Below are positions 8,075 to 18,461 of a DNA stretch of 64,000 nucleotides, piece after piece. The notes under the pieces are model-generated. The model made no database searches. It had not been told where the DNA came from and saw only the letters and a program-made list of their open reading frames with translations. The DNA comes from an uncultured Chloroflexia bacterium (GTDB lineage Bacteria > Chloroflexota > Limnocylindria > Limnocylindrales > CSP1-4): the NCBI GenBank assembly GCA_963722105.1, contig CAVRKQ010000004.1, forward strand, positions 196,335-260,334. The letters are read 5' to 3'. Both the position numbers and the translations under genes were made by a program. Within the stretch, counting starts at the first letter, position 1, and every line of letters starts with the position of its first letter.

Positions 8075-8647
8075 GTGATCCGCGAACGGATGCTCAGCAC
8101 GCTCGTCGCAACAGGACTCCTCATCGCCGCCTGCGGCGGCAGCACCCCGACCACCGCACCCGGCCAGACCGCGGCCGGCGGTCCGACATCGGGTCCCGCG
8201 ACGGACGGGGCCCCGGCAGCGACCGACGGGCCCGCCGCGACGCCCGGTGGCGGTTCCGGGACTGGACAGGCCTGCGACCTGCTCACGACGGAGGAGGTCG
8301 AAGCGGCAACGGGCCGGCCCGACATCGAGGCCCAGCCGGTTGGCGCCGCAGAGACCGACGCATCGTCGGCCTGTGCGTTCGTGTCCGCAGGCGTGCTGCC
8401 CGCGGTGATCGTCTCGATCCTCGATCCGGCCAACACGAACACCGATCCTTCGGGCTACCTGTCGCTGCCCGGCTCGGTCGAGGTGGCTGTCTCTGGCGCT
8501 CGGGCCGTCTACGCTCCCGCGGCCGGCTTCGTGATGCTCGTCTTCAAGGGCAGCACCGTCGCCACGATCCAGATCGCGGCGCCGAAGGACGACGACTTCC
8601 AGAAGACCGGTGAGGCGCTCGCGCAGAAGGTCGCGGACCGCCTCTGA
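8075..8647 (+). CDS. Putative lipoprotein (DUF3558-like)
   Basis: Signal peptide with lipobox LIAAC; T/P/G linker; ACDLLTTEEV motif and second Cys in SACAF; GGAGG SD upstream. Confidence 0.75.
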   Translation: MIRERMLSTLVATGLLIAACGGSTPTTAPGQTAAGGPTSGPATDGAPAATDGPAATPGGGSGTGQACDLLTTEEVEAATGRPDIEAQPVGAAETDASSACAFVSAGVLPAVIVSILDPANTNTDPSGYLSLPGSVEVAVSGARAVYAPAAGFVMLVFKGSTVATIQIAAPKDDDFQKTGEALAQKVADRL

Positions 8648-8660
8648 AGGTCGGCGACGC

Positions 8661-9614
8661 CTACGCCGTGCGGCCCAGGATCTCCAGCAGCATCCGGTTG
8701 AACTTCGGCTCGTCCGCATCCATCGCGAAATGGACGTTCGCGGGCTTGCCGCTGCGGAATCGGAAGTCGCAGACCGTGCGACCGAGCGAGAGCTCCGCGT
8801 GGATCTCGACGTCCACCGGGATGTGCTCGGTCGTCAGGATCGACGGGTCGATGATGGCGCACACCGCGAGCGCGTCATGGACGGGAGCCGCGAGGGCGTC
8901 GCCGCGACGGGGCATCGGCTGGGTCGCGTCGTAGCCGTCGATCCGCTGGAGGACGAACCGCGCCGCGGCCTCGCCCGCGGGCGTGCCGAGGGCCCGGAGC
9001 TGCGCGGCATCCTCGGTCGAGACGAGCGCCCGATGGGTCGCGTCGAGCGGGACCATTCGGATCGGGCGGCCGCAGTTGACGACGATCCTGGCGGCCTCCG
9101 GATCGAGCCAGATGTTGAACTCGGCCGACGCCGTGATGTTCCCGTGGTCATGGGCCCCGCCCATGATCACGATCTCGGGGATCGCATCCAGGATCCGGGG
9201 CTCCTTCTGGATCGCCATCGCGATGTTCGTGAGCGGCCCGACCGGGCACAGGACGATGTCGCCGTTCGAGGCGAGATACGTCTCGATCAGCCAGTCGACG
9301 GCGTGCCCCTCCTGGAGCTTCGCGCCGTTCGAGATCTCCGGCAGGTCGAGCATGTCGCCGTGGATCCGCGTGGCCATGCCGCGCTTGACGTCCGTGCGCA
9401 CGAGCGGGCGATCGACACCTCGATAGACCGGCACCTCGGGCATCCCGATGAAGTCGAAGATCCGGAGGGTGTTCTCCGTCGTGTAGTCGAGGGTCGTGTT
9501 GCCGTTGACGCTCGTCGCGCCCACGAGCTCGATGTCCGGCGAGAGGGCCGCGGTCATGAGCGCCACGGCGTCGTCCGTGCCGGTGTCGACGTCGAGGATC
9601 ACCTTCGTGGGCAT
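8661..9614 (-). CDS. Nucleoside hydrolase (IU-NH/Rih family)
   Basis: DVDTGTDDAVAL, GPLTNIA, AEFNIWLDPEAA, VHDALAV. Confidence 0.95.
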   Translation of the reverse strand: MPTKVILDVDTGTDDAVALMTAALSPDIELVGATSVNGNTTLDYTTENTLRIFDFIGMPEVPVYRGVDRPLVRTDVKRGMATRIHGDMLDLPEISNGAKLQEGHAVDWLIETYLASNGDIVLCPVGPLTNIAMAIQKEPRILDAIPEIVIMGGAHDHGNITASAEFNIWLDPEAARIVVNCGRPIRMVPLDATHRALVSTEDAAQLRALGTPAGEAAARFVLQRIDGYDATQPMPRRGDALAAPVHDALAVCAIIDPSILTTEHIPVDVEIHAELSLGRTVCDFRFRSGKPANVHFAMDADEPKFNRMLLEILGRTA

Positions 9615-9626
9615 GCGGCGCAGTCT

Positions 9627-9643
9627 GCCTGATTCGATCAGGC
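9627..9643. promoter_or_regulatory. Inverted repeat GCCTGAT-N3-ATCAGGC abutting the -10 box (CAGACT, 9622-9627) of the nucleoside hydrolase gene
   Basis: Perfect 7-bp arms read directly from the sequence; operator versus terminator role is unknown. Confidence 0.4.
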
Positions 9644-9736
9644 GGCGACGGCGTTGTAGACCCAGAGCGCCAAGGCAACGCCCACCACGATCGCCGCCAG
9701 CGTCGCGACGAGGAGCCAGCGTGGCTGGAGGCCCAT
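9638..9736 (-). CDS. Unannotated 32-aa single-pass membrane microprotein
   Basis: MGLQPRWLLVATLAAIVVGVALALWVYNAVAA*; the ATG overlaps the upstream TGA (TGATG). Confidence 0.65.
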   Translation of the reverse strand: MGLQPRWLLVATLAAIVVGVALALWVYNAVAA

Positions 9737-10419
9737 CACTCGGCTGTCTCCTCGAGGGTTGCCCGCTTGGCTGCCTCGAACTCGGCCTCGGTCAGGTCGC
9801 CGCTGTCGCGGAGCCGCGCGAGGCGCTCGAGGCGGTCCGCGACCACGGACGTGCGTGGTCGGCGGTCGACGAGGTGGAGCTCATAGCCACCCCGCGGTGA
9901 GGCCGCCACGCGCCTGGTGTAGTGGCTCCCGGGTGCTTGCGATCGGCCCCGCGAGGCCTCGCGCAGCCCCCAGATCCCAAGGATCAGCGGCACACCGCCC
10001 ATGAGCCCGAACACGACGGCGCAGATCAGCCAGCCCCAGGCGAGCTCGCCTGGGTCGGCACCGGGCGGGTTGAGCCCGAACTCGAGGAAGTTCCAGCCGA
10101 GCGACAGGAAGAGCGCCGGCCACGCGAGCGAGACGAGACCTGCCCAGCCCCCGCCGAGCTGTGCGCCGCCCCACAGCGCGAGGCCGCCGAAGATGAACAG
10201 GCCGAAGATGCTCAGCGGCGTCAGCGCGATCACCGCGTCCGGGCACTCGACCCTCGGGATGTACGGCCCGCCACTGGCACAGAACCCGCCGATGCCCATC
10301 ACGAGCCGCATCGAGATCCACAGGATCGTCAGGGTGAACGCCAGGCCGCCGATTCCCAGCAGGTAGAGGACGATCGAACGCGGTCGCGGACCGGCCTGCG
10401 CGGTCGTGCCAAGCGCCAT
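9736..10419 (-). CDS. Multi-pass membrane protein with C-terminal SHOCT domain
   Basis: About four hydrophobic segments; GGFCASGGPY...ECP loop; ADRLERLARLRDSGDLTEAEFEAAKR; TGATG coupling to the Mo-enzyme gene. Confidence 0.85.
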   Translation of the reverse strand: MALGTTAQAGPRPRSIVLYLLGIGGLAFTLTILWISMRLVMGIGGFCASGGPYIPRVECPDAVIALTPLSIFGLFIFGGLALWGGAQLGGGWAGLVSLAWPALFLSLGWNFLEFGLNPPGADPGELAWGWLICAVVFGLMGGVPLILGIWGLREASRGRSQAPGSHYTRRVAASPRGGYELHLVDRRPRTSVVADRLERLARLRDSGDLTEAEFEAAKRATLEETAE

Positions 10420-13286
10420 CACGAGGTCGATTGTCGCGCCGCGACGATCGCCGCGCGCACCCGGTCCGGCGTCGCGGGCAGCTGCGTGAGCCGGACGCCA
10501 ACCGCATCGCGGATGGCGCCGAGGATGGCGGGCGCGGTGGGGATCAATGCCGGCTCCCCCACGCCCTTCGCGCCGTACGGGCCGGACGGCTCCGGGTCCT
10601 CGATGAGGAGGCACTCGATCTCGGGCATGTCGCCGGCGGTCGGGATCAGGTAGTCGTGGAGGTTCTCCGTGCGGCCGGGCACGTACGCCTCCATCAGCGC
10701 CATCCCCAGGCCCTGCGCGATGCCGCCGTGGATCTGCCCCTCGACCTGGGTCGGGTTGATCGCCCGCCCGACGTCATGGGCCGCGACGATCCGCCGCACC
10801 TTGACGGTCCCGAGCGCGGGATCGACATCGACCGTCGCAATCTGGGCCCCGAACGCATAGGTCTGGTACGGGACGCCCTGGCCGTCGGCGTCGAGCGGCG
10901 TCGTGTCGGGATCGAACGTGCCGCGACCCGCGAGGACGCACGCCGTCTGGGCATCCGTGACGTCGACCTGTGGCAGCTCCGCCAGCTCGATGGTCGTCGC
11001 GCGGCCCGCGGTGTCGGTGACGACGATGCGACCGGCGACGTTGCCGGCTCCGGTGCCGGCCTCGATCTCGGGGCCGGCCTCGAACGCGATCGCGCCGTCG
11101 TCGACCTCCGCCAGCAGCAGGATCTGGCGCCGGAGGTCCTCCCCGGCCAGGCGCGCCGCGTTGCCCGAGACAAAGGTCTGGCGCGACGCCGAGGATTTGC
11201 CTGCGTCGGCCGTCCGATCGGTGTCGCCGCTGACCAGGTCGAGCGCGTCGGTGGCGACCCCGAGGGCGTCGGCGGCGATCTGGACGAGGATGGTCGATGC
11301 GCCCTGGCCGATGTCGACCGCGCCACAGAGGAGGACGACGTGACCATCGCGGGTCACGCCCATCTCGATCGTCGAGGGGTTGGCCAGAGCCGTGTTCCCG
11401 ATGCCGTACCACATGGCCCCAATGCCGACGCCACGGCGAGTCCCGCCATTGGCGGTCGCGTTGTGAGCCTCGGCGGCCGCGCGCAGGTCCTCCCAGTGCG
11501 GGCGGAGGGCCTCCAGGCAGGCTCCGAGGCCGGCGCTGGCCACCAGCGCCTGTCCGCTCGAAGTTCTGTCGCCGGCGCGGATCGCGTTGGCGAGGCGGAG
11601 CTCGAGCCGGTCGCGTCCGAGCTGCTCGGCGAGGTCGTCGAGAAGCGTCTCGTGGGCGATCGCGGCCTGGGGCACGCCGAAGCCGCGAAAGGCGCCGGCC
11701 GGCGGGTTGTCCGTGTACACGGCCTGGGTGGTCGCCAGCACGGTGTCCCACCGATATGGCCCCATCGCGTGGACGGGCACGCGGTTGGCCACGGTGGGCC
11801 CCCACGAGGCGTAGGCGCCGGTGTCGAAGTCGCCGTGGAAGCGAAAGCCGGTCAGGTTGCCGTCCGCGTCGGCACCTGCGGTTGCCCGGATGCGCGCGGG
11901 ATGGCGCTTCGGGCTCGCGGCCATGGATTCCGGGCGGGTCCAGACGGCCCGACACGGCCGGCCGGTCCGCCACGCGGCGAGGGCGATCAGCGCGTGGACG
12001 CCGAGGTCGAGCTTGCCGCCGAAGCCACCGCCGCAGGCGGTCGGGACGATCCGGACGCTCGTGGGCGGGAGCCCGAGGATGAGCGCGACCTCGTCCCGGT
12101 CCATGTACGGCGCCTGGGTGCTGACCGTGAGCTCGATGCGGTCGCCGACGCGGCGCGCGAGACCGGCCTCGGGCTCGATGTAGGCGTGCTCGACGTGGGT
12201 CGTCTCGACCTCGACCGTCGCCGTCACGGCCGCTGCGGCGAGCGTCTCCTCGACGTCGCCCGAGGCGAGCCGTCCGCGGACGAGGACGTTGCCGGGCGCC
12301 TGTTCGTGGAGCTGCGGCGCGCCCTGGGCGAGGGCGTCGTCGAGGCTTCGCAATGGATCCTCGGGGTACCAGGCGATCGGGATGTCGCCGTCGTCGATCG
12401 AAGCGATCGTCCGCTCGTCGCCGACGAGGGCCAGGACTGCCTCGCCGCGGTGGCGGACGACGCCGTCGGCGAGCGCCGGCTGGTCCTTGCCGATCGGATA
12501 GATCCCGTAGCGGTTCTGGCCGGGGATGTCGCGGACCGTGAGGATGTCGACGATCCCCGGGTGCCGAGCGCGCACTGTCGAGAGATCGCCGATCTCGAAT
12601 CTCGCCCGCGCGTGCGGCGACCGAACGGCGCGCACCGCGAGGACGTTCTCCGGCCGGTGGTCGGCGCCGAAGCGCGCGGTCCCGAGCACGCGTGGCAACC
12701 CGTCGACCTTCGCGATCCGGGATCCGACAGCGGACCCGGCTTCGGGCGAGTCGGCGACGGCGATGGCCGGCAAATCAGCGACCGCGCCGCTCGCCGACCC
12801 GGCAACCGGGTGGTCCCCGCCCACGCGCGCATCCCGCGTCGCGGCGATCGCTTCGACGATCTTCACGTAACCCGTGCAGCGGCACAGGACGCCACCGATG
12901 CCGTCGAGGATCGCCTGGTCGTCGGCGCTCGGGTTCCCGCGCAGCAGGGAGTCGGCCGCCATGAGCATCCCGGGCGTGCAGATCCCGCACTGCGCGGCGC
13001 CGAGGGCCAGGAATGCCTCCTGGAGGTCGCTCGGCGTGCCGTCCGGCGCGGCGAGGCCCTCGACTGTCGTGATCTCGGCACCCTCGACCTGCGCGGCGGG
13101 GACGCAGCAGGAGACGGCTTGGCGGCCGTCGAGCCGGACCGTGCACGCGCCGCAGTCCCCGGCCTCGCACCCGACCTTCGTCCCCGTGAGGCCCAGGTCG
13201 TCGCGCAGGACATCGGAGAGGCGCCGTTGCGGCTCGACGTCGACCCGCACGGCGTGCCCGTTGAGCGTGAACCCGACCGCCGTCAC
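10419..13286 (-). CDS. Nicotinate-dehydrogenase-like molybdenum hydroxylase, fused 2x[2Fe-2S] and Mo-binding subunits
   Basis: GCEAGDCGACT, QCGICTPG, CRCTGY; GGGFGGKLD, GAFRGFGVPQ, GAMWYGIGNTALANP, SSASRQT, GAKGVGEPAL. These segments match my recollection of Eubacterium barkeri NdhL/NdhM. Confidence 0.85.
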   Translation of the reverse strand: MTAVGFTLNGHAVRVDVEPQRRLSDVLRDDLGLTGTKVGCEAGDCGACTVRLDGRQAVSCCVPAAQVEGAEITTVEGLAAPDGTPSDLQEAFLALGAAQCGICTPGMLMAADSLLRGNPSADDQAILDGIGGVLCRCTGYVKIVEAIAATRDARVGGDHPVAGSASGAVADLPAIAVADSPEAGSAVGSRIAKVDGLPRVLGTARFGADHRPENVLAVRAVRSPHARARFEIGDLSTVRARHPGIVDILTVRDIPGQNRYGIYPIGKDQPALADGVVRHRGEAVLALVGDERTIASIDDGDIPIAWYPEDPLRSLDDALAQGAPQLHEQAPGNVLVRGRLASGDVEETLAAAAVTATVEVETTHVEHAYIEPEAGLARRVGDRIELTVSTQAPYMDRDEVALILGLPPTSVRIVPTACGGGFGGKLDLGVHALIALAAWRTGRPCRAVWTRPESMAASPKRHPARIRATAGADADGNLTGFRFHGDFDTGAYASWGPTVANRVPVHAMGPYRWDTVLATTQAVYTDNPPAGAFRGFGVPQAAIAHETLLDDLAEQLGRDRLELRLANAIRAGDRTSSGQALVASAGLGACLEALRPHWEDLRAAAEAHNATANGGTRRGVGIGAMWYGIGNTALANPSTIEMGVTRDGHVVLLCGAVDIGQGASTILVQIAADALGVATDALDLVSGDTDRTADAGKSSASRQTFVSGNAARLAGEDLRRQILLLAEVDDGAIAFEAGPEIEAGTGAGNVAGRIVVTDTAGRATTIELAELPQVDVTDAQTACVLAGRGTFDPDTTPLDADGQGVPYQTYAFGAQIATVDVDPALGTVKVRRIVAAHDVGRAINPTQVEGQIHGGIAQGLGMALMEAYVPGRTENLHDYLIPTAGDMPEIECLLIEDPEPSGPYGAKGVGEPALIPTAPAILGAIRDAVGVRLTQLPATPDRVRAAIVAARQSTS

Positions 13287-14149
13287 GCCAGCACCTTCGC
13301 GACCGCCCGTCGCACGAGCTCGAGCGCTGCCTCGCGGCGATACCCGGCGCTGCCTCGGACATCATCGATCGGCCGAAGGTGGTCCAGGTGCTCCAGTCGG
13401 ACGACATCGACGATCGACGCGGCAGCCTCGGAGGCGGACCGCGCGATGAGCTCGGTTTCGAGCGTCGGGAGTCGCTGTGCCACCTCTGAGCACGCTCCAA
13501 CGGCCACCCGTGCCCGCGCGATCTTGTCCTCTGCACCGATCTCGACGACAGCCGAGACCATCGCGATGGAGATGACGAGGTAGGCGCGCGACCCGAGCTT
13601 CTCGAATGTCGAGCGAACGGTCGTACCGCGGATCACGGGCGGGATGATCACGCCCGTCACGAGCTCATCGGGCCGTCGTGCCGTTCGGCGGTTGCCGGTG
13701 ATGAACTGGCCAATCGGAACGCTGCGCGGGCCGCGCTTCGAGAAGAGCTCCACGACCGCGTCCAGCGCGAGGAGATTCGGCACCCCGTCCGCGGCGGGCG
13801 AGGCGTTGCAGATGTTGCCGGCGATCGTCCCGCGAGCCTGGATCTGGGCGCCGCCGATGGTCAGCGCCGCCGCCTTCAGGCCGTCGAACGCGGGCGGCAA
13901 CGGCGACTCGACGAGGTCGGTCCACGTCGTCAGCGCCCCGATCCACCATCCCCCATCGACGGCCTCGAGACCGCGGAGCCTCGACATCGCCGTGACGTCG
14001 AGGATGTTCTCGTCGAGCAGGCGGCCGACCCTGGCCGGGTAGTGGTCGGTGGCGCCGGCGACGACGACCCATGGGTTGCCCCCGGGACCACCGGCGGCGA
14101 GCGCCCCGATCGCTTCGTTGACGTCGGTCGGTCGGAGGTAGGTGCCCAT
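13283..14149 (-). CDS. Molybdenum hydroxylase FAD-binding subunit (NdhF/XdhB/CoxM-like)
   Basis: VAGATD, IGGAQIQARGTIAGNICNASPAAD, FEKLGSRAYLVIS, PIDDVRGSAGYR; GTGA overlap with the downstream gene. Confidence 0.92.
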   Translation of the reverse strand: MGTYLRPTDVNEAIGALAAGGPGGNPWVVVAGATDHYPARVGRLLDENILDVTAMSRLRGLEAVDGGWWIGALTTWTDLVESPLPPAFDGLKAAALTIGGAQIQARGTIAGNICNASPAADGVPNLLALDAVVELFSKRGPRSVPIGQFITGNRRTARRPDELVTGVIIPPVIRGTTVRSTFEKLGSRAYLVISIAMVSAVVEIGAEDKIARARVAVGACSEVAQRLPTLETELIARSASEAAASIVDVVRLEHLDHLRPIDDVRGSAGYRREAALELVRRAVAKVLA

Positions 14150-14164
14150 CGGTCGAGCGCCGGC

Positions 14165-15163
14165 CTACGGCGCGGTGACGAGCGGCAGCACGCGCTCGGC
14201 GAGCACCTCGATCGAGGCCGGATCCCAGTCGAGCGGGTTCAGGATCAGGTGATCGACGCCACCGAGGGCTTCGATCTTGCCGCGGATCCGCTCGGCCACG
14301 GCCTCGGCCTCGCCGAGGAGGTAGAACTCCTGCCAGTACGGCAGGTCCATCCCCGAATAGACGCGGAACTTCGCCGCGGCGGACTCGGGCTTCTCGCCGG
14401 GCTTGAGGATGTGCACGAAGTTCGAGTAGACGCGCCGCATCCCATCCGGGTCGCGCCCGTTCTCGACCATGAGCGCGCGGATCCGGGCCCAGTCGCCGGC
14501 GACCATCTCGGCCGTGGCGGAGCTGTGGGGAACCCACGTCTCGGCGTACTTCGCGATCCGGCGCAGCACCGGCGTGATCGTGTCGACGCCCTGGCCGTAG
14601 ATCTTCTCGGACGGCTGCGTCCCGCCACCGATCCAGATCGGCGGGTGGGGCTTCTGCGCGGGCTTCGGCTCGATCGTGAGGTGCTCGAAGCGGTAGTACC
14701 TGCCCTCGTACGACACGTCGTCGCCGGCCCAGAGCGCGGTGATGGCCTCGAGCATCTCGTTCATCCGGCGACCGCGCTCCTCGATCGGGATCCGCAGCGC
14801 GGCGAACTCCTCCTTGTTCCACCCGACCCCGACGCCGAGGATCGTTCGTCCGTCCGAGAGCTGGTCGAGGGTCCCCCACTCCTTCGCGAACGCCACCGGA
14901 TCGCGGAACGGCAGCACGAGCACGAGCGTGCCGAGGCGGATCGTCCGGGTGACGCCCGAGAGCGCGGCGAGGAGCGCGATGGGCTCGAGCCAGGCGACGC
15001 GGTACGCGGGCGGTGCGATGAGCAGGTGGTCGATGAGCATCGCGCTCTCGAACCCGAGGTCTTCGGCGCGGCGCAGGTAGACGCCCATGTCCTGGAGCCT
15101 CGCGGTCTGCTCGCCGAGCGCGAAGGTGGGCAGCCGGAGCCCGTAGCTGACCTTCCCGGCCAC
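14165..15163 (-). CDS. Luciferase-like (LLM) flavin/deazaflavin-dependent oxidoreductase
   Basis: GFESAMLIDHL, LEPIALLAALSGVTRTIRLGT, DQLSDGRTILGVGVGW, PKPAQKPHPPIWIGG; start at GTG 15163, just after the enamidase stop. Confidence 0.9.
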   Translation of the reverse strand: MAGKVSYGLRLPTFALGEQTARLQDMGVYLRRAEDLGFESAMLIDHLLIAPPAYRVAWLEPIALLAALSGVTRTIRLGTLVLVLPFRDPVAFAKEWGTLDQLSDGRTILGVGVGWNKEEFAALRIPIEERGRRMNEMLEAITALWAGDDVSYEGRYYRFEHLTIEPKPAQKPHPPIWIGGGTQPSEKIYGQGVDTITPVLRRIAKYAETWVPHSSATAEMVAGDWARIRALMVENGRDPDGMRRVYSNFVHILKPGEKPESAAAKFRVYSGMDLPYWQEFYLLGEAEAVAERIRGKIEALGGVDHLILNPLDWDPASIEVLAERVLPLVTAP

Positions 15164-15164
15164 G

Positions 15165-16365
15165 TCAGTGACCGCCGGGAGCCGCGGGGGCCGCGCCCAC
15201 GACCTCGGCGGCTCTTCCCGGCAGGTGGCGTGTTCCGGCTGCGTCCGATCTGCACGGTGCCGTCGATCAGCACCATCGAGACGCCTGGCAGATCGCCAAT
15301 TGCGAGCGCCTCGAGCGCGGTCGACGCGGATGAGCCGACCGGCGCGTCGCACAGGACGATGTCGGCCGCCCGGCCGGGCGCCAGCACGCCGACATCCAGC
15401 CCGTGGACCCGCGCGGTGTTCCCGGTCGCCATGGCAACGGCCAGCTCTGGCGCCACGCCGCCGAGCGACGCGAGGTGCGCAATCACGCGCAGGATTCCGA
15501 GCGGCACGACCCCGGTCCCCGACGGCGCGTCGTTGCCGATGATCACCCGCCGAAGGCCCGCGAGGCGATCCGATCTGCGACTCGCGGCCGATGCCGTGCG
15601 AACCGCGTGGATCGCCGCCCGGCCGTTGCCGCAGTGCACGATCTCGATCGCCATATCCGAGGCGATGACGCGCTCGATGTCCGGATCCGACATCGGCGTC
15701 GTGCCGCCGTTGACGTGCCCGACGATGTGCGGCCGGGCCTCGAGCACCGCATCAGCGGCGATCGGGTTCGAGCCGGCGATGGACGGACCGCCGGTGTGGA
15801 ACGTCACGGTCATCCCGTGCTGCTTCGCCCACGCGACCATCGGCGCCGCCTGCGCGCCGGTCTTGACGCTCCCGAGCCCGATCTCGCCGACGAGCCTGAC
15901 CCCGGCCTCGGCCATCTCGGCGAAGTCGCGCTCCACCAGCCCCAGCTCCAGGATCGGCGCGCCGCCGTGGACCTTCACGCCTGCGGGACGGAAGGTGGCC
16001 CACGCCTTCGCCGCCACGATCGCGAGCGCCTTGAGCCCGGCGACGTCCTTCGGGCGGCCCGGAAGGTGGACCTCGCCGGCCGAGATGACCGTCGTGACCC
16101 CGCCATGCAGGCCCGACTCGATGAAGCCCTGGGTCTGCTGGCGCGGCGTGAAGTCGCCGAACACCGGGTGCGCGTGGGAGTCGATCAGGCCCGGGATCGC
16201 CGTCGTGCCCTTCGCGTCGATGATCTGGTCGACGCCCTCGGCGGCCAGGCGGCGCCCCACCGCCTCGATTCGGCCGTCGGCGATGAGGATCGCATTGGCG
16301 TCCGCGAGCGGCGCATCGATGTCGCCGGTGACGACGGCGCCGATGTTGCGAATCAGGGTCCGCAT
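15165..16365 (-). CDS. ena: Enamidase-like amidohydrolase (frameshift in the last ~20 codons)
   Basis: PGLIDSHAH, GDFTPRQ, LHGGVTTVISAGEVHLPGRPKD, RPAGVKVHGGA, GEIGLG, FHTGG, GNDAPSGTG, SRNTPPA, all characteristic of E. barkeri enamidase as recalled. Confidence 0.88.
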
Positions 16366-16403
16366 CGAAATTCGCGCTCGCTTGCCTCGCCGCCCGGCGT
16401 CGG

Positions 16404-16976
16404 CTAGCGGAGCCCGTCCTCGCCGACCGCGTCCTCGGCCAGGAGGCCGCCCACGCGGGCGTGCGGCCGGCCGCCGTCGGCGACCGCGATCGCGAGCAGG
16501 AGCTCGTCGGAGGCCGGGGCGTCGGGGACGCTGATCGTCATGGCGTCGAAGTGCGAGCGGACGAGCATCGCCTTGATGTGATGGACCGGGATGTCGAGGG
16601 TCGCGCCCATGGCCCCGCGCTTCTTGACCGACGGCAGGATCGAGACGCCGCCGACGGCGGCTCGCGTCGGCGCCCCGAACTTGGGATGGAGGCAGGCCGC
16701 GATGTGCTCGAGCTCGCCGGCCTCGCCGACGATGCCGCCCTTGCCGTACGCCTCGACCGGCGTCCCGAGGGCCTCCTTGGCGCGCCGCGTCAGCTCCTCG
16801 CCCAGGAGCTCGCCGAAGTCGATGAGCTCGGTCAGGTCGTCGCCGTTCGCGCCTGCGTAGGGGTTCTTGACCACGACGGCGACGGCGACGCGGCGGAGCG
16901 GGCGCGCAAGCGGCTTGCCGCCCTCCTGGTGGAGCTCCTCGACGAACGTCGCCCACTTCCGGATCGTCACGGCCAC
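16404..16976 (-). CDS. DUF1185 / 'amino acid synthesis' family protein
   Basis: [38 protein letters not shown]...[24 protein letters not shown]; GGAGG SD 7 nt before the GTG. Confidence 0.88.
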
Positions 16977-16999
16977 GCCGGCACCTCCTCGATCGGGCG

Positions 17000-17005
17000 A
17001 GTCTA
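17000..17005 (-). promoter_or_regulatory. Putative -10 box (TAGACT) of the nicotinate-type operon
   Basis: agtcta on the + strand, 23 nt upstream of the GTG at 16976, in the gap after glyQS. Confidence 0.5.
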
Positions 17006-17050
17006 GCGCCGAGGAGCCGTGCGAAACCACGCTCGGGATCGGCGGCGCCG

Positions 17051-18461
17051 TCAGCCCCGGGCGGCGGAGAGCCGGTCGGCGATGACCCGCTTGACGTTGT
17101 CGACCGGCACCCGCTCCTGGGTCATCGCGTCGCGATCTCGGATCGTCACCGCGCCGTCCTCGAGCGACTCGACGTCGACCGTCACGCACCACGGCGTCCC
17201 GATCTCGTCCTGGCGGCGGTAGAGCTTGCCGATCGCGGCCGTGTCGTCGTAGACCGCCATGACGTCCTTCGCGAGGTCGTCGCGGAGCTTGTGGGCCAGC
17301 TCCACGATCTCGGGCCGCTTCTTGAGCAGCGGCAGCACCGCGACCTTGTACGGCGCGAGATCCGGGTGCAGGCCGAGGACGACCCGCTTCTCGCCGCGGA
17401 CCTCCTCCTCGCGGTAGCTGTCGATGAGGAACGTGAACGCCGACCGATCCGGCCCGCCGGCCGTCTCGACGATGAACGGGATGAAGTGCTCCTCGGTCGC
17501 GGGATCGAAGTACTCGAGGTTCTCGCCCGACGCGGCCTGGTGTCGCGACAGGTCGAAGTCGCCGCGGTTGTGGATGCCCTCGAGCTCCTTCCAGCCGAAC
17601 GGGAAGCGGTACTCGACGTCGACGGCCTTCTTGGCGTAGTGGGCCAGCTCGTCCGGGGCGTGCTCGCGGAAGCGCAGGCGCGACTCGGTCACGCCGTAGC
17701 GCGTGTACCAGTCCCAGCGGCGCGGCAGCCACTCCTCGAAGATCGCCGCCGCCTGGTCCGGCTTGACGAAATACTGCATCTCCATCTGCTCGAACTCGCG
17801 CATCCGGAAAACGAAGTTGCCGGGGCTGATCTCGTTCCGGAAGCTCTTGCCGATCTGGGCGATCCCGAACGGCATCTTCTTGCGCGAGCTCTGCTGGACG
17901 TTCTTGAAGTTCACGTACGAGCCCTGGGCCGTCTCCGGACGGAGGTACACGACCGAGGCGTCCTCCTCGACCGGTCCCATGAACGTCTTGAACATCAGGT
18001 TGAAGCGCCGCGGCGGCGTGAGCTTGCCGCCATCGACCGGGCACTTGAGGCCGAGTCGGTCGACCACGGTCGGATCCTGGAGGTCGGTCGCGGAGAGGTT
18101 CTCGGCGCCGGGCAGCTCGTCGAGGCGGAAGCGCCGGTGGTCGGTCTCGCATTCGACCAGCGGGTCGCTGAACGACCCGACATGGCCTGACGTGATCCAG
18201 ACCTGGGGATGCATCAGGATCCCGGCGTCGAGGCCGACGATGTCGTTCCGCTCCTGGACCATCGCCCGCCACCAGGCGCGCTTGACGTTGTTCTTCAGCT
18301 CGACGCCCGAGCGGCCCGTAGTCCCAGACCGCGTTGATGCCGCCGTAGATCTCGGAGCTCGGGTAGACGAAGCCGCGGCGCTTCGCGAGCGAGACGATCG
18401 TGTCGAGCTCGGAGACAGCGGGCGCGACGTCATCCGCGGTGGCAGTTGGGGGGTTGGGCAC
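17051..18461 (-). CDS. glyQS: Glycine--tRNA ligase, alpha2 type (frameshift near 18310)
   Basis: [64 protein letters not shown]. Confidence 0.95.

Follow-up and report, generated by a model that had tools for sequence, protein, structure and literature searches.

The upper pathway of reductive nicotinate breakdown leads from nicotinate to 6-hydroxynicotinate, from there to 6-oxo-1,4,5,6-tetrahydronicotinate, and finally to 2-formylglutarate and NH3 (PMC3511419, PMC9304392). Picrate degradation provides a precedent for hydride transfer from F420H2 to an aromatic ring by an enzyme with the fold of luciferase-like oxidoreductases (LLMs), and the same review of F420 names no role of this cofactor in nicotinate or pyridine catabolism (PMC8498797). 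A full-text search for literature combining enamidase or 6-hydroxynicotinate with F420 found none. Here, we analyse a stretch of 64,000 nucleotides (nt) from an uncultured Chloroflexia bacterium of the order Limnocylindrales (contig CAVRKQ010000004.1, positions 196,335 to 260,334; hereafter the window), in which a single operon carries genes for nicotinate dehydrogenase (Ndh) subunits, an enamidase and an LLM. We consider it probable that this operon encodes the upper, ring-opening part of reductive nicotinate catabolism, with the LLM as an F420H2-dependent ring reductase in the place held by 6-hydroxynicotinate reductase (Hnr) in other clusters.

According to the proposed scheme, the NdhF-like subunit, a flavin adenine dinucleotide (FAD) protein, and the fused NdhS/L/M chain would hydroxylate nicotinate at C6 to give 6-hydroxynicotinate. 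The LLM would then use F420H2 to place a hydride on C4 of the 2-pyridone (C4=C5), with protonation at C5, and the product of this ring reduction would be 6-oxo-1,4,5,6-tetrahydronicotinate, the enamidase substrate. In this role it would replace both the ferredoxin-dependent Fe-S flavoprotein Hnr and a UPF0280/ApbE-like helper. Enamidase would hydrolyse the lactam and the resulting enamine to 2-formylglutarate and ammonia, and a nucleoside hydrolase encoded in the same operon may deliver the base by cleaving a riboside. We infer the substrate, cofactor and reaction direction of the LLM from what appears to be a non-orthologous displacement of Hnr. Steps beyond 2-formylglutarate are not encoded at the operon; the genome of the organism holds at least 12 aldehyde dehydrogenase paralogs.

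The role of the LLM as ring reductase is supported by comparative genomics. An enamidase alignment was used to scan GTDB genomes, one for each species, and 80 loci were kept. Hnr was assigned indirectly, as a 504–518-amino-acid (aa) Fe-S protein encoded between enamidase and DUF1185 in loci of Bacillota and Thermodesulfobacteriota; IMG gives members of the protein's 90% cluster the name '6-hydroxynicotinate reductase'. This candidate has an N-terminal 2x[4Fe-4S] domain, and a UPF0280/ApbE-like gene also accompanies the enamidase there. An LLM ortholog (59–92% identity) is present in 54 of the 80 loci and Hnr in 23, no locus contains both, and the three with neither are all cut at contig ends. 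The LLM gene starts within 100 nt after the enamidase gene in 44 of the 54 LLM-type loci. UPF0280 is found in 20/23 Hnr-type loci as against 0/54 LLM-type loci. DUF1185 genes, already described in the first-pass annotation of the window as accompanying proteobacterial clusters, occur in both cluster types (51/54 LLM-type, 21/23 Hnr-type); DUF1185 is a conserved companion or helper of enamidase, and one might speculate that it handles the enamine or aldehyde product.

The absence of Hnr extends to whole genomes. The first-pass annotation had seen no Hnr gene in the window; we find the same, and tblastn detected neither Hnr nor UPF0280 in the organism's own 3.0-Mb, 77%-complete assembly. Across 151 genomes of the same class, of which 110 reach 90% completeness or more, the Hnr profile matched only a generic ferredoxin domain. 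It likewise returned no Hnr genome-wide in 19 out of 19 LLM-type genomes, while recovering Hnr in 17/17 Hnr-type genomes. The arrangement of enamidase, LLM and ndh genes without hnr, which the first-pass annotation had reported for this one locus, recurs in 54 of the 80 species-level loci. Enamidase (at least 71% identity) was detected in nine of the 151 class genomes, and an LLM ortholog (E<=1e-70) in exactly those nine, always adjacent. In a maximum-likelihood tree of the enamidases, all those of LLM-type loci fall into one clade (support 97/88), which fits a single displacement event and a later spread across Chloroflexota and Methylomirabilota/Rokubacteria. The genomes of the two cluster types come from different phyla.

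With 209.4 bits at a curated cut-off of 166.9, the LLM falls into the NCBIfam family TIGR03619, an F420-dependent LLM class named after Rv2161c. To our knowledge, no substrate has been assigned to this family. The protein is a PF00296 barrel with no Fe-S domain and no homology to Hnr (EC 1.3.7.1); by its sequence it would be an analogue of Hnr and not a member of the Hnr family. The organism's own genome encodes 18 LLM paralogs, the closest of which is 36% identical to the operon LLM. Orthologs of the operon LLM form a tight group (59–92% identity), from which the genome's own paralogs are clearly set off.

The operon and its upstream boundary consist of the following features, all on the minus strand and given in the direction of transcription.

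17051-18433, minus strand: glyQS, with class II tRNA synthetase domains, directly upstream of the operon.
16977..17050, minus strand: 74-nt gap that separates the stop of glyQS from the start of DUF1185 and holds a -10-like TAGACT and, 7 nt before the GTG, a GGAGG Shine-Dalgarno sequence.
16404-16976, minus strand: DUF1185/AA_synth protein, 190 aa (PF06684, E=1.8e-66).
15165..16365, minus strand, start at 16365: enamidase ortholog (6-oxo-1,4,5,6-tetrahydronicotinate amidohydrolase, EC 3.5.2.18), matching PDB 2VUN.
14165-15163, minus strand: luciferase-like oxidoreductase (LLM), 332 aa (PF00296, E=1.8e-50; TIGR03619, Rv2161c).
13283-14149, minus strand: NdhF-like FAD subunit, 288 aa (PF00941 FAD_binding_5 and PF03450 CO_deh_flav_C).
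10419-13286, minus strand: fused [2Fe-2S] and molybdopterin subunit (NdhS+NdhL+NdhM), 955 aa (Pfam domains Fer2, Fer2_2, Ald_Xan_dh_C, MoCoBD_1 and MoCoBD_2; two 2Fe-2S domains, a hammerhead and both Moco domains).
9736-10419, minus strand: SHOCT membrane protein, 227 aa, with the SHOCT domain at its C-terminus (PF09851, E=3e-7).
9638-9736, minus strand: 32-aa open reading frame (ORF) with a single hydrophobic helix (MGLQPRWLLVATLAAIVVGVALALWVYNAVAA), read from the sequence; its ATG overlaps the SHOCT stop.
8661-9614, minus strand: nucleoside hydrolase of the inosine-uridine-preferring type, 317 aa, last gene of the operon (PF01156, E=1.4e-84).

Two of the three known enzymes of the upper pathway are clearly present as orthologs, judged by sequence. 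We searched the molybdenum (Mo) domain of the 955-aa subunit against solved structures in two pieces, which matched NdhL (268 bits; next best, 4-hydroxybenzoyl-CoA reductase with 141 bits) and NdhM (218 bits; next best 142 bits) of the Eubacterium barkeri (E. barkeri) enzyme (3HRD). The N-terminal part of the same subunit matches 3HRD NdhS with 143 bits, the top solved match for this segment. E. barkeri nicotinate dehydrogenase is thus the top solved match for each segment of the Mo subunit, in line with its first identification as Ndh, and we regard the subunit as a clear nicotinate dehydrogenase ortholog. Together with the enamidase of the same organism, it is by far the closest solved relative, with nearly twice the next score. 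The FAD subunit gave XdhB-type NCBIfam matches under their cut-offs.

The enamidase aligns over its full length with the E. barkeri enzyme (2VUN; E=2.3e-125, residues 2–385 on 3–382), whereas the runner-up in the PDB search reaches E=1e-7. The motifs that had led to its initial recognition are clear; the metal-binding HxH and the GNDAPSGTG stretch line up between the two proteins, and close homologs are annotated as 'enamidase' by IMG. Homologous enamidases are 392–405 aa long and end in ...SRNTPPAGRAAEVVGGGGPAARGH. In the window, the homologs' ending ...TPPAGRAAEVVGGGGPAARGH is readable only in the +1 frame: the frame of the gene as assembled reads ...SRNTPPAGKSRRGRG... and continues for ~150 codons across the LLM gene, extending the ORF to 14761, whereas the +1 frame reads RAAEVVGAAPAAPGGH and then ends at a TGA separated by 1 nt from the LLM start. 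This natural TGA (15165-15167) is out of frame as assembled. A DNA alignment with four relatives places one extra base at ~15211-15222, so that the frame shifts 17 codons short of the conserved ...GGH stop at which all relatives end. The extra base may be an assembly error or a real lesion. An estimate of the genome-wide frameshift rate from codon-position GC profiles was dropped, since these are confounded by antisense periodicity.

The organism's genome contains a cofD-cofC-cofE operon (C6:283353-285898; locus L094:4354-6899), each gene scoring above its cut-off, and cofD is present in all nine operon-bearing genomes of the class (G000, G008, G029, G041, G047, G071, G128, G137 and G149). Candidate F420-reducing enzymes in these nine comprise an FGD-like LLM in 9/9 and an Fno-like protein in 7/9, all matches but one lying under the equivalog cut-offs. 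In G008 an Fno-like gene lies near the operon; unrelated genes intervene, and we did not count it as linkage. Over the wider set, cofD was found in 16 of 18 LLM-type genomes (7/7 outside Chloroflexota) versus 2 of 17 Hnr-type genomes. The initial proposal that the LLM would reduce 6-hydroxynicotinate with F420H2 thus draws support from the mutual exclusion of Hnr and LLM, from the family of the protein, where its F420-dependent class was borne out above a curated cut-off, and from the F420 genes.

Three further groups of loci deserve mention. In L055 (14987-16348) and L073, Hnr is encoded without the N-terminal 2x[4Fe-4S] ferredoxin domain; of all Hnr-type genomes, only the two that contain these loci have cofD, and in the tree their enamidases branch closest to the LLM-type clade. 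In the Methylomirabilota/Rokubacteria loci L033, L034, L036, L037 and L079, the gene order is enamidase, DUF1185, LLM (with a 4-nt overlap) and a separate Mo subunit of 760 aa that is only ~32% identical to that of the window; no FAD subunit was detected nearby in these clusters, and a Liv-type ABC importer lies upstream. Finally, L011, L012, L038 and L079 have a gene order near-identical to that of Chloroflexota, and their metagenome-assembled genomes are labelled Deferrimicrobiaceae, Dormiibacterota, Acidobacteriota or Verrucomicrobiia; these labels could reflect mis-binning or recent transfer.

Several points weigh against an F420H2-dependent ring reductase. The assignment is built on comparative genomics, and the enzyme activity is a prediction. 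In this assembly, no intact frame runs to the C-terminus of the enamidase family. The contrast in cofD occurrence is suggestive and not independent proof, because it tracks phylum boundaries. The AlphaFold2 model of the LLM is a TIM barrel (pLDDT 83.4) for which enzymes dependent on flavin mononucleotide (FMN; SfnG, RslO1, luciferase) and on F420 (Mer, FGD1/2, Adf) rank together in Foldseek, with template-modelling (TM) scores of 0.70–0.77 and at most 24% identity; FMN and F420 enzymes match equally, and the cofactor assignment therefore rests on membership in the hidden Markov model family and on co-occurrence. FO synthase (CofH/FbiC) is absent from the organism's own genome and from eight operon-bearing relatives, all with a completeness of at least 91%; an identical search was positive in 19 of 121 other Chloroflexota, including one from the same family, and tblastn of the organism's own genome with three Chloroflexota FbiC proteins gave no match. 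The idea that the organism makes F420 is qualified to this extent: the cofD-cofC-cofE operon exists, but F420 could be completed only from imported FO, on which the operon-bearing bacteria may depend. A further idea, to which we give little credence, is that Ndh and LLM form a redox-neutral, F420-linked pair in organisms unable to produce the deazaflavin head group, which would have to import FO: the two electrons from nicotinate would leave the Mo centre via the FAD subunit onto F420, and the LLM would return them as a hydride to 6-hydroxynicotinate. Nicotinate would then become tetrahydro-6-oxonicotinate by net hydration, with no external reductant.

The same observations bear on how the LLM might act otherwise. 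It could serve another step of the pathway, for example as an F420-dependent oxidoreductase on 2-formylglutarate that replaces Hgd or the cluster aldehyde dehydrogenase, with the ring reductase encoded elsewhere. Many of the F420-dependent LLMs that have been characterised oxidize or reduce alcohols, aldehydes or sugars (FGD, Adf and hydroxymycolate dehydrogenase are among the PDB matches), and a methylmalonate-semialdehyde-dehydrogenase-like aldehyde dehydrogenase gene is present in 17/23 Hnr-type versus 1/54 LLM-type loci, a gene for which the LLM could stand in; this contrast also counts among the points against ring reduction. We nevertheless judge another step unlikely because the pathway would have no ring reductase, Hnr being absent genome-wide from LLM-type genomes. 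The clean one-for-one exclusion, moreover, involves Hnr and UPF0280, and the many aldehyde dehydrogenase paralogs of the genome could take 2-formylglutarate. An LLM that acts as ring reductase or at another step but uses FMN/FMNH2 would agree with the position of SfnG, RslO1 and luciferases at the top of Foldseek and phmmer results, level with F420 enzymes, and with the missing FO synthase in all operon-bearing relatives examined. It seems to us very unlikely in view of the score above the cut-off of the F420-class model, the presence of cofC/D/E with cofD co-occurring with LLM-type clusters even outside Chloroflexota, and the lack of a gene for a flavin reductase partner in the operon. An FMNH2-dependent monooxygenase producing 2,5-dihydroxypyridine was rejected, as it would leave enamidase without a substrate and the operon has no flavin reductase.

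The ring itself could also be a different one, if the same logic of hydroxylation, reduction and hydrolysis were applied to another pyridine carboxylate or to a pyrimidine or pyridone base freed by the nucleoside hydrolase. The nearest NCBIfam model of this hydrolase is UriH (277 bits, below the cut-off of 450), a uridine-preferring-like assignment, and such a gene ends the operon here; in 11 of the 23 LLM-type loci that could be evaluated, it comes within 2 kb after the Mo gene. No NCBIfam equivalog names the Mo enzyme or the amidohydrolase, and the characterised E. barkeri enzymes share no more than ~45–57% identity with their counterparts here. Nucleoside hydrolases of this family could, however, equally act on nicotinate riboside, and the recurrence of the gene suggests that the nicotinate pathway itself may start from such a riboside, from which the hydrolase may free the pyridine base. 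Since E. barkeri Ndh and enamidase stand much closer than any other solved proteins, and the known nicotinate cluster consists of this gene set with Hnr (PMC3511419), we hold a different heterocycle to be quite unlikely. Reduction of 6-hydroxynicotinate by the LLM with F420H2 is the reading we retain.

The organization of the locus agrees with a transcriptional unit. Codon-position GC and the ORF listing, in a window of ~70% G+C, place all operon genes on the minus strand from 16976 to 8661. Spacings are 38 nt from DUF1185 to enamidase, 1 nt from enamidase (in the frame of its homologs) to LLM and 15 nt from LLM to the FAD subunit; FAD and Mo subunit genes overlap by GTGA, Mo subunit and SHOCT genes as well as SHOCT gene and 32-aa ORF by TGATG, and 23 nt separate this ORF from the nucleoside hydrolase. 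Domains and junctions corroborate the co-oriented set of DUF1185, enamidase, LLM, FAD, fused 2Fe-2S/Mo and SHOCT genes plus microprotein that the first-pass annotation had delimited as 9638-16976; its lower end does not hold, as the nucleoside hydrolase at 8661-9614 had been left out. Of the single -10/Shine-Dalgarno arrangement noted at the same time, the TAGACT and GGAGG motifs in the 74-nt gap are present; a single promoter is only putative, because a consensus scan of 8400-17300 returned no promoter, nor did it return a terminator. The glyQS gene lies upstream of the cluster in 10 related loci; read-through from glyQS is therefore possible and may transcribe the operon. The SHOCT gene is coupled to its neighbours by TGATG overlaps, but L009 and L026 are the only related loci with homologs, so that it is not a conserved member. 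Here, the SHOCT gene and the 32-aa ORF form an insertion that separates the Mo gene from the nucleoside hydrolase gene. The flanks hold housekeeping genes only (PPDK, DnaJ, GlyRS, polyprenyl synthase and GlmU); they contain no regulator, no transporter and no additional nicotinate genes, and genes for the later fermentation steps (Hgd, mutase etc.) were not found within the window.

If the proposed function is correct, the oxygen-sensitive, ferredoxin-dependent step of reductive nicotinate breakdown would have an unrelated, F420-dependent analogue, and bacterial F420 would gain a physiological role in the catabolism of vitamin B3 and the pyridine ring. It would also provide the first substrate for the large, uncharacterised Rv2161c/TIGR03619 class and explain how uncultured lineages that are abundant in soil and freshwater (Limnocylindrales-type Chloroflexota, Methylomirabilota/Rokubacteria) could use nicotinate. 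Comparative genomics argues strongly that the operon represents a variant of the known nicotinate pathway that is not described in the literature we searched.

Compared with the NdhFSLM/Hnr/Ena system of nicotinate fermentation in E. barkeri (Alhapel et al. 2006, cited in PMC3511419 and PMC9304392), the window shares the Mo-dependent nicotinate dehydrogenase (3HRD), the enamidase (2VUN) and, as far as can be deduced, the order of the chemistry. It differs in that NdhS, NdhL and NdhM are fused in one 955-aa chain and in that an LLM is present where E. barkeri has Hnr; UPF0280 is lacking. The aerobic cluster of Azorhizobium caulinodans and Bradyrhizobium (PMC3511419) likewise combines Ndh, enamidase and a conserved DUF1185 gene. 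Proteobacterial clusters and those of Thermodesulfobacteriota and Bacillota keep Hnr and UPF0280, usually together with an aldehyde dehydrogenase and transporters, whereas the window has the LLM and a nucleoside hydrolase. With the hydride transferases of picrate degradation (Fht/Npd, PMC8498797), the LLM shares the TIM barrel and the proposed transfer of a hydride from F420H2 to an electron-poor ring, which is a nitroaromatic for Fht/Npd and would be a 2-pyridone carboxylate here; the likeness is one of fold and proposed chemistry, the LLM of the window belonging to the Rv2161c class. Within TIGR03619/Rv2161c, the LLM scores above the cut-off of the family, and its orthologs form a tight subgroup.

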